Origin: Escherichia phage vB_EcoP_WFI101126
Direction: 5' to 3' (one strand)
DNA length: 64,000 nucleotides
Sequence record: NC_070991.1
Shown: piece after piece, positions 7,406 to 9,047 of the stretch
Layout of the letters: every line of letters starts with the position of its first letter
Numbering within the stretch: position 1 is the stretch's first letter
Program-made: the position numbers and the translations under genes
The notes under the pieces: generated by a model
Database searches by the model: none
What the model was told of the DNA's origin: nothing
The model's input: the letters and a program-made list of their open reading frames with translations, nothing else

Positions 7406-8464
7406 ATGGCTAATCCAACTTTATTTGTATCGTATGACCAGAATGGTAAAAAACTTTCTTTTGCTAACTGGATTTCTGTTCTGTCCCCTCAGGATACCCC
7501 GTTCGTATCCATGACCGGTAAAGAGTCTATCAACCAGACTATCTTTAGCTGGCAGACCGATGCATTGGCAAGCGTTGACGCTAATAACGCACACGTCGAA
7601 GGCTCTCGTGCTGAAGACGGCGAAATGAAACCGACTGTTATCAAATCTAACGTTACTCAGATTCTGCGTAAGGTTGTTCGTGTTTCTGATACTGCTAACA
7701 CCACCGCTAACTATGGTCGTGGTCGTGAACTGATGTATCAGCTGGAGAAGAAAGGTAAAGAGATCAAACGTGATCTCGAGAAGATCCTTCTGTCCGGTCA
7801 GGCTCGTACCGACGTTCTGGCTGACCAGTACCTGACTAACTCTGCAACTGATCCTGATGTTGTTGGTCTGAACGACACCCATGCAGCTCGTAAGACTGGT
7901 GCTTTCCAGTTCCTGTGTGCTCACGGCGGTCTGTCTGGTGGTTTTGTTGACAAGACCAAAAATGGTCCTGCTGACCCGGATACTGGTGCAGTAACTGTTA
8001 AAGTTGCACAGAATGCTTCTAACCCGACCACTAACATTGGTTTCGACGAAGCTGATATCTTTGATATGACTCTGCAACTGTACACCGCTGGTTCTGAAGC
8101 AGATATCATCATGATTAACCCGGCTCATGCTAAGATCTTCGCTGGCCTGCAAGAAAATACTCAGGGTTCACGTAAGCGTATCTTTGAGAACACCAAGCAG
8201 TTCATCTACGAAGTTAACAGCATCACTGACCCGCTGGGCCAGAGCTACAAAATCATCGTTAACCGTTGGATGCCTACCGATGCAGTTTACTTCTTCCGTA
8301 GCGCTGACTGGACCCAGATGGTTCTGCGTGCTCCGAAACGTACTGAACTGGCTAAAGATGGTTCTTACGAGAAGTGGATGATTGAGATGGAAGTTGGTCT
8401 GCGTCACCGCAACCCGTACGCTTCCGGCGTTCTGTTCACTGCTGCGGGAAAGGCGGCGGCGTAA
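7406..8464 (+). CDS. major capsid protein
   Basis: 352 aa; position after scaffold; followed by Ig-like ORF and strong terminator. Confidence 0.8.
   Translation: MANPTLFVSYDQNGKKLSFANWISVLSPQDTPFVSMTGKESINQTIFSWQTDALASVDANNAHVEGSRAEDGEMKPTVIKSNVTQILRKVVRVSDTANTTANYGRGRELMYQLEKKGKEIKRDLEKILLSGQARTDVLADQYLTNSATDPDVVGLNDTHAARKTGAFQFLCAHGGLSGGFVDKTKNGPADPDTGAVTVKVAQNASNPTTNIGFDEADIFDMTLQLYTAGSEADIIMINPAHAKIFAGLQENTQGSRKRIFENTKQFIYEVNSITDPLGQSYKIIVNRWMPTDAVYFFRSADWTQMVLRAPKRTELAKDGSYEKWMIEMEVGLRHRNPYASGVLFTAAGKAAA
8446..8452 (+). promoter_or_regulatory. candidate -1 ribosomal slippery heptamer G_GGA_AAG in capsid frame
   Basis: GGGAAAG with codon phasing G|GGA|AAG, 13 codons before capsid stop; -1 frame open into the 8476..8988 ORF. 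Confidence 0.5.
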
Positions 8465-8475
8465 CAGTAGACAGT

Positions 8476-8988
8476 GTGACTGTTAGCCCTGCGTCTTTAG
8501 CAAGTCTAGAGACAGGGGCTACTCGGCAGTTCACTGCAAGCGCGGAGAAAAGTGATGGTTCTACCGAAACAACTGGCTTTACTTGGTCAGTGACAGGCGG
8601 TGGTTCTATCACTCAGTCGGGTTTGTATACTGCTCCGAGTGCGTCTCAATCCACTGATGTATCCATTACTGCAACTTTAGAAGGTGTTTCTGGTACAGCA
8701 ACCATTTCTGAAATTGTTGCTCCTGCTCCTACTATTGTAGCTAAGGGTCCAATTACGGGTAAAACTGGTGGTTCCTCCACTAATTTCACTACCATGTTTA
8801 CTGTAACTAATTCTGCTGCTGCGGATTACACGTTTGTTGTAACTCCTACAGAAGCTGGTACAGTGAGCGCCGCTGGTGCGTTAACCTTAGATGCTGCTGC
8901 AAGTGGCGAAGTTACTGTTAAAGCAAGTCTGACAGCTGACCCATCCATCAATGCAACATGCACTTTTACTGGTGTAACACCTGCTTAA
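8476..8988 (+). CDS. Ig-like (Big_2-type) domain; predicted C-terminal extension of capsid protein via -1 frameshift rather than an independent gene
   Basis: GTG start with no Shine-Dalgarno; in -1 frame relative to capsid; VTVSPASLASLETGATRQFTA resembles Big_2 domain starts. Confidence 0.55.
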   Translation: MTVSPASLASLETGATRQFTASAEKSDGSTETTGFTWSVTGGGSITQSGLYTAPSASQSTDVSITATLEGVSGTATISEIVAPAPTIVAKGPITGKTGGSSTNFTTMFTVTNSAAADYTFVVTPTEAGTVSAAGALTLDAAASGEVTVKASLTADPSINATCTFTGVTPA

Positions 8989-8994
8989 AACTAG

Positions 8995-9019
8995 ACCCTG
9001 CCTTCGGGCGGGGTTTTTT
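8995..9019 (+). terminator. intrinsic terminator: 8-bp stem ACCCTGCC/GGCGGGGT, TTCG loop, T6
   Basis: Read directly, 7 nt after stop at 8988. Confidence 0.7.
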
Positions 9020-9047
9020 CGTTTTAAGACCTATACAAGCTAGTGTG

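Follow-up and report, generated by a model that had tools for sequence, protein, structure and literature searches.

Kuraviruses are prolate C3 podophages of Escherichia coli, and frameshifting at the end of their major capsid gene has been described before. The genome paper of phage SU10 reported 'a potential ribosomal slippage (GGGAAAG)' by which, 'as in phage phiEco32', the Ig-like CDS10 would be joined to the major head protein, and mass spectrometry recovered two forms, of 38.5 and 55.4 kDa, the longer of which was called '9+10' (PMC4281155). The same signal was reported for phage Privateer, where SDS-PAGE gave both expected capsid bands and mass spectrometry detected the minor form in virions; according to the same paper, the product of the frameshift had been seen in both phiEco32 and SU10 (PMC7881722). 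A 2023 survey of the Kuravirus group found the heptamer together with a -1 extended isoform, mostly about 500-550 aa long and, for YF01 and Paul, about 890 aa (PMC9965538). Among the deposited records, the RefSeq entry of Privateer carries a joined capsid CDS, and so does the GenBank entry of Paul, with the note 'Frameshift at GGGAAAG; Frameshift in PhiEco32 major capsid protein product as well (PMID: 18294652)'. The capsid frameshift has been published as a trait of the whole family of Kuravirus and Privateervirus capsid genes and is already known. What we add here is small, namely a comparative case against a GTG start for the Ig-like reading frame, support from synonymous sites for a hairpin after the heptamer, and a note on the modular nature of the tail.

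Capsid locus and slip site

The DNA analyzed here (the window) is a 64,000-nt stretch of Escherichia phage vB_EcoP_WFI101126 (NC_070991.1), an E. coli podophage and, with phiEco32 and SU10, a Kuravirus; all features given below lie on the plus strand. Positions 7406-8988 show 99.5% DNA identity to Escherichia phage Ptacy1532 and 97-98% identity to phiEco32, SU10, IMEP8, and dozens more Kuravirus genomes. The ORF at 7406..8464 is the 0-frame major capsid protein gene (352 aa, 38.75 kDa; HK97 fold). Its product matches Pfam SU10_MCP (E = 5.5e-77; 259.6 bits, cut-off 24.1) and is near-identical to the SU10 major head protein resolved by cryo-EM (PDB 7z45, E = 1.6e-233). Neighbors of the gene match Pfam SU10_portal and SU10_adaptor, and the order portal-scaffold-MCP-adaptor is present. 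An intrinsic terminator at 8993..9026, consisting of a 10-bp GC-rich stem (8993-9016) and a T run, lies directly 3' of the stop codon of the Ig-like frame, and the SU10, Paul, and Privateer records likewise annotate a terminator there. Scanning the whole window for Rfam families and tRNA genes returned no matches.

The slippery heptamer G_GGA_AAG (X_XXY_YYZ) occupies 8446..8452 and is read as G/GGA/AAG by the capsid ORF, as the preliminary description of this DNA had stated, so that the 0-frame codons are XXY and YYZ. The 0 frame ends with GGA AAG GCG GCG GCG TAA. The earlier placement of the site 13 codons before the capsid stop was an overestimate: GGA is the fifth codon before the stop, and 9 nt separate the heptamer from the TAA at 8462..8464 that ends the short, major form. 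The -1 frame has a TGA at 8383-8385, is open from 8386, and stops at 8986-8988; it thus runs without interruption from the slip site into the ORF at 8476..8988, again as described. Translation of the -1 frame from the heptamer gives an extension of 178 codons plus stop (8452..8988). The predicted trans-frame junction reads ...GVLFTAAGK/GGGVTVDSVTVSPAS..., and the predicted fusion comprises 349 capsid and 178 extension residues (527 aa, 55.7 kDa), against 38.75 kDa for the normal product; an earlier estimate of about 349 plus about 180 residues was close to this. The predicted mass compares with the 55.4 kDa reported for SU10.

GGGAAAG was not enriched in the window (5 copies against 7.5 expected). 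Across the ORFs of 100 aa or more on either strand, 48 in-frame XXXYYYZ heptamers were found, and the number of open -1 codons after the heptamer was 178 at this site, with a runner-up of 38. The sequence context of GGGAAAG at 8446-8452 is unique within the window; the heptamer itself is not.

We give a probability of roughly 90% to the reading that this locus, like the Kuravirus major capsid gene in general, uses a programmed -1 ribosomal frameshift by tandem slippage. Most ribosomes would read through GGA AAG GCG GCG GCG TAA and produce the 352-aa major capsid protein. A minority would undergo a tandem -1 slip on G_GGA_AAG, in which the P-site tRNA-Gly would re-pair from GGA to GGG and the A-site tRNA-Lys from AAG to AAA, probably aided by a downstream hairpin whose core stem lies 9 nt past the heptamer. 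Slipped ribosomes would then translate 178 codons in the -1 frame, yielding a 527-aa, 55.7-kDa capsid protein with two C-terminal Big_2-type Ig-like domains. For this phage we infer both the slip frequency and the role of the hairpin.

The tail assembly chaperone gene pair G/GT of phage lambda uses the identical heptamer G_GGA_AAG and the same E. coli tRNAs, and slips at a rate of a few percent. The rate cited in the Kuravirus-group survey is about 3.5% (PMC9965538). The lambda site, however, lies in a tail assembly chaperone gene whose product is not a virion component, whereas the present one lies in a capsid gene. In the 10A/10B system of T7 and T3, ribosomes that shift to the -1 frame close to the 3' end of the major capsid gene make a longer minor form, which is dispensable and co-assembles into the head, and a strong terminator follows the gene. 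The capsid family is unrelated at the sequence level, and the slippery sequence differs, that of T7 being of the G_GUU_UUC type. In T3, the capsid extension adds an Ig-like domain (PMC9965538).

Conservation of the probable recoding signal

Capsid loci gathered from IMG/VR and GenBank comprised 16 Kuravirus-group sequences and two Privateervirus sequences (Privateer and vB_CsaP_009). GGGAAAG and its frame were kept in all 18 relatives, at a distance of 0-12 nt from the capsid stop, and 169-545 codons were open in the -1 frame after the heptamer in 17 of them, the exception being the SU10 record. Identity of the major capsid protein to the Kuravirus relatives was 93-99.7%. The slip site was retained even where capsid protein identity falls to 57%, as in Proteus phage Privateer and Cronobacter phage vB_CsaP_009.

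Relative to the other Kuravirus capsid frameshifts, namely those of phiEco32 (gp11-gp12), SU10 (gp9+gp10), Paul, and YF01, which share the same capsid gene, the same GGGAAAG position, and a homologous first Ig domain, there is no substantive difference, and the present locus is one more isolate. With 178 codons and two domains its tail is of the phiEco32 type, whereas the tails of Paul and YF01 have about 540 codons. The two Privateervirus loci share with it a homologous capsid protein, the same heptamer at the gene end, and a predicted downstream hairpin followed by a terminator, and the join to their 169-codon extension with Ig domains is annotated. In Privateervirus, however, the heptamer adjoins the stop (G_GGA_AAG_TAA) instead of preceding it by 9 nt, and the cargo, an I-set plus a Big_2 domain, is not homologous to the present tail.

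How the Ig-like frame is reached

Of the competing explanations, the one that survives best is that the Ig-like ORF is a separate gene begun at GTG 8476, by initiation or by reinitiation after the capsid TAA, and encodes a free decoration protein; we regard this as very unlikely. Its product would have 170 aa and roughly 16.6 kDa, with the N-terminal peptide (M)TVSPASLASLETGATR. A GTG does exist at this position here and in the phiEco32-type clade, and reinitiation is conceivable with the capsid TAA 12 nt upstream. Many records are annotated accordingly, the usual practice in GenBank being a separate 'Ig domain containing protein' from GTG 8476 (e.g. phiEco32 and Ptacy1532), and the structural paper on SU10 considers that gp10 may be a minor capsid protein in its own right (PMC9509320).

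These points are outweighed by the comparison among relatives. As had been noticed earlier, the 18 nt before GTG 8476 (GGCGTAACAGTAGACAGT) lack a Shine-Dalgarno motif (GGAG, GAGG, or AGGA). The position of the GTG is occupied by ATA in NJ01 and XT18, and by GTA in ECBP2, KBNP1711, Ptacy1479, Paul, EP335, Bas87, E20-1, and EK010. In five relatives, the earliest start codon past the slip site is an ATG located 33 codons inside the Ig domain, likewise without a Shine-Dalgarno sequence. Conversely, the stretch G(S)GGVTVDS, which is coded 5' of GTG 8476, is conserved as protein, residues G2, V4, T5, and V6 of the extension being invariant, and the Big_2 profile begins there; the predicted first beta-strand of the first Ig-like domain, VTVDSVTVSP, also starts upstream of the GTG. 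The Ig-like frame strictly keeps its register with the capsid gene, also across the sole indel that the alignment of the relatives shows between heptamer and Ig domain, which is 3 nt long, a multiple of three. A start that is not conserved, upstream protein that is, and an indel of 3 nt only are together a strong argument that the tail is reached from the capsid frame. In addition, a fused species of 55.4 kDa was reported from SU10 mass spectrometry (PMC4281155). We rejected independent initiation at GTG 8476 because of the ATA and GTA codons in other clades, the lack of a Shine-Dalgarno sequence, and the conserved upstream protein.

The comparative evidence thus favors frameshifting over independent initiation, and in our judgment the -1 extension is very probably translated only after a slip at the heptamer. 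The predicted tryptic peptide GGGVTVDSVTVSPASLASLETGATR begins with residues coded upstream of GTG 8476. In these respects, namely the heptamer and its frame in 18 of 18 relatives, the non-conserved GTG, the conserved upstream residues, and the literature on relatives, the frameshift interpretation put forward in the preliminary description is supported.

It could also be that frameshifting is negligible or the long form unassembled in this isolate, the extension being a silent, dispensable relic, and here the case for doubt comes from SU10. In its deposited genome, a 1-nt insertion and clustered substitutions bring a stop into the -1 frame after 11 codons, an exception already noted in the Kuravirus-group survey (PMC9965538). 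Density for gp10 or the extension was not seen in the cryo-EM head of SU10 (PMC9509320), and the larger capsid band was not seen either (PMC9509320; PMC9965538). A head without extension density fits the interrupted -1 frame in that stock, and the two observations together indicate that the extension is dispensable. In the present sequence, by contrast, the frame is intact over 178 codons, as it is in the 17 relatives with 169 to 545 codons. Moreover, 35 of the 45 codons for invariant residues in the first Ig domain (78%) vary synonymously, and such abundant synonymous change at conserved extension residues indicates purifying selection on the protein. The heptamer and the hairpin stem are invariant as well. 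We consider the chance that the extension is silent to be slim, slightly more so than that of a separate gene. Transcriptional slippage by RNA polymerase as the origin of the two capsid forms, for which nothing specific speaks beyond the fact that either mechanism should give the same protein, is hardly credible, because the only homopolymer runs here are G3 and A3, whereas transcriptional slippage is known to require about 7 or more identical bases in a row, and because the motif fits, in the right frame, the X_XXY_YYZ rule for tandem slips.

Predicted downstream stem-loop

If the two forms arise by programmed frameshifting, a stimulatory structure may be expected about 5-9 nt after the heptamer, and a small hairpin had been proposed at about 8471-8483. 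A conserved stem-loop is indeed predicted downstream, but with other borders. Folding, conservation, and synonymous-site constraint point to a stem-loop at 8453..8492. Its 7-bp core stem, which begins 9 nt past the heptamer, would pair UAACAGU (8462-8468) with ACUGUUA (8479-8485) across a 10-nt loop, and a lower stem of GGC/GCC plus GCGG/CUGC would extend the hairpin to 8453-8492. The 40 nt 3' of the heptamer fold into this interrupted stem-loop with -18.1 kcal/mol (z = -1.9); fold z-scores of the downstream hairpins were modest throughout (-1.2 to -2.1). The 4-bp hairpin at 8471-8483 (ACAG/CUGU) was rejected, as it sits in the loop of the conserved structure, which is variable among relatives.

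Across the 16 relatives, the core stem was invariant, the 10-nt loop varied freely, and changes in the lower stem converted G-C to G-U pairs. All four codons with their third base in the stem were synonymously invariant, compared with 10 of the 45 conserved-residue codons overall (hypergeometric P about 0.0014; 0.006 without the codon that overlaps the capsid stop). Compensatory double changes in the stem were absent among the relatives aligned, so that coding constraint is not fully separable from RNA constraint in these figures. Taken together, it is plausible that the hairpin at 8453-8492 is a frameshift stimulator. Privateer has an unrelated hairpin, 6 nt past its heptamer.

A different stem-loop, in which the heptamer is enclosed, was proposed in the SU10 genome paper (PMC4281155). 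The corresponding structure in the present sequence, CUGCUGC...GCGGCGG at 8439-8459, has a folding energy of -11.3 kcal/mol (z = -1.0). We rejected it as a stimulator in the usual sense, because its stem is impossible while the ribosome occupies the heptamer.

The Ig-like extension

The extension matches PHROG 13745, 'Ig domain containing protein', with E = 1.2e-80. A Big_2-like Ig domain had been recognized here before, and the whole tail indeed scores 26.2 bits against Pfam Big_2 (PF02368; curated cut-off 22.8). Its two halves, however, match Big_2 separately, at residues 6-83, which cover profile positions 2-75, and at about residues 105-158, so that two domains rather than one are predicted. 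Homologous tails in relatives match Big_2 down to E = 6e-15. A profile built from the tails of the relatives matches the Ig repeats of teneurin-like proteins (E = 7e-7), which together with the Pfam match supports a Big_2-like domain 1 at 8461..8730. A second match of this profile is to pb6, the tail tube protein of T5, in a C-terminal region spanning residues 362-459 (E = 8.6e-4), and this, again with the Pfam match, supports a Big_2-like domain 2 at 8731..8985. A single-sequence AlphaFold2 model of the 178-aa tail had a pLDDT of 49 and scattered strands only, a confidence too low for use; the Ig fold of the tail is a predicted one, assigned from profile matches only.

The cargo appears to be modular. 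Among the Kuravirus sequences, its length varies between 178 and 545 codons while the rest of the capsid protein stays at least 93% identical, and the repeat number of the unit that forms domain 2 visibly varies in the alignment.

Ig-like modules are found on other phage structural proteins as well. The survey of Fraser et al. (2006) described such domains, sometimes attached via frameshifts, and proposed weak adhesion to carbohydrates. The C-terminal domain of T5 pb6 and T4 Hoc are further examples, but Hoc is a separate decoration protein and the pb6 domain is fused in frame, whereas here the module would be made sub-stoichiometric through recoding. The long form is expected to enter the prolate head at low copy, with its Ig domains displayed outside, where they would likely contribute weak adhesion to carbohydrates on cells or in mucus. 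We infer both the surface display and the weak glycan adhesion from the analogy to T7 10B, T4 Hoc, and the systems surveyed by Fraser et al. The locus would then be one more case in which a phage uses recoding to place on its head an Ig-like adhesion module that is sub-stoichiometric and evolves fast, with possible relevance to the behavior of therapeutic coliphages in mucus.

Two further, modest proposals are that the downstream hairpin (8462-8485, extending to 8453-8492) is the real stimulator and that the swappable Ig cargo tunes the adherence of gut coliphages to mucus or host glycans. We regard this combination as speculative and rather unlikely to hold in full. If it did, the Ig cargo might contribute to the mucin binding of Kuravirus ES17, which has been reported and was credited solely to the tail fiber.

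The practical value of the analysis lies in annotation, in that the correct product would be a joined capsid CDS. Roughly 100 Kuravirus genomes have been deposited, and most of them, that of the closest relative among them, list the Ig ORF separately, as 'hypothetical' or 'Ig domain'; some records start it at the non-conserved GTG, and some omit it altogether.

Codon usage differs between the two parts of the predicted fusion. The capsid gene has an Fop of 0.80 and a GC3 of 0.48, with CTG accounting for 18 of its 23 Leu codons, whereas the tail has an Fop of 0.66 and a GC3 of 0.28, with Leu mostly encoded by TTA. The drop is abrupt at the slip site, as would suit a product of low abundance or a mobile module.

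We compared the -1 frame extension of the capsid gene (the tail; window 8452-8985) with the corresponding tails at the capsid loci of relatives L020-L026. Judged from these sequences, the tail is built of modules and has evolved far more rapidly than the capsid protein: between the window and these relatives, tail identity ranged from 42 to 100%, whereas that of the capsid protein was 93-99.7%. Tail length varied from 178 to 545 codons across the window and L020-L026, and the compared tails carried one to four repeats of the second type of Ig unit, with an extra Big_2 insert in some relatives and an additional C-terminal domain of ~130 aa in some. In phage vB-EcoP-XT18, an inserted HNH endonuclease gene (L025:2806-3318) separates the Ig ORF from the adaptor gene; this gene was absent from the window and the other relatives examined.

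Codon usage, compared between the capsid (window 7406-8461) and the tail (8452-8985), broke sharply at the slip site. Fop fell from 0.80 upstream to 0.66 downstream and GC3 from 0.48 to 0.28, and the predominant Leu codon changed from CTG to TTA.

Two relatives without the slippery heptamer, Salmonella phage SE131 and Aeromonas phage APT65, show gene duplication in place of frameshifting. In SE131 (L018:2485-5261), the gene after a plain capsid gene encodes a 586-aa in-frame fusion of a second SU10_MCP paralog with Big_2 domains. APT65 (L019:1569-5763) has four SU10_MCP paralogs in tandem, the last of which (428 aa, annotated as hypothetical) bears a C-terminal extension.

In the deposited SU10 sequence, the hairpin loop differs from that of the window by clustered substitutions and a 1-nt insertion (ACACTGTCTAC at L003:2566-2580 vs ACAGTGT-GAC at window 8471-8484), which together create a TAG in the -1 frame, 11 codons in. 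Yet a fused form of 55.4 kDa was described when SU10 was first published (PMC4281155), and the early TAG in the record therefore reflects either a sequencing error or a mutation that arose later in the stock.

The DNA of Kuravirus ES17 (MN508615), which binds mucin and heparan sulfate, was 95.5% identical to window 7406-8988. The ES17 paper credits this binding to a tail fibre, which it describes as having no Ig-like fold, and does not mention a frameshifted capsid-Ig product; the ORF of this product is annotated as "hypothetical" in the ES17 genome.

A strong intrinsic terminator (window 8993-9026) lies directly 3' of the extension's stop, and the capsid gene and tail thus appear to close a transcription unit, much as T7 gene 10 is followed by its terminator. 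Across window 1-64000, we found no tRNA genes and no Rfam matches at gathering thresholds.

Capsid and Ig sequences of Kuravirus (90-98% identical at the DNA level) were also present in GenBank records MZ417522.1 ("Mycolicibacterium phage J1", 24.9 kb) and PP350014.1 ("phage PH444", 114.9 kb), which are probably chimeric or mis-assigned assemblies.
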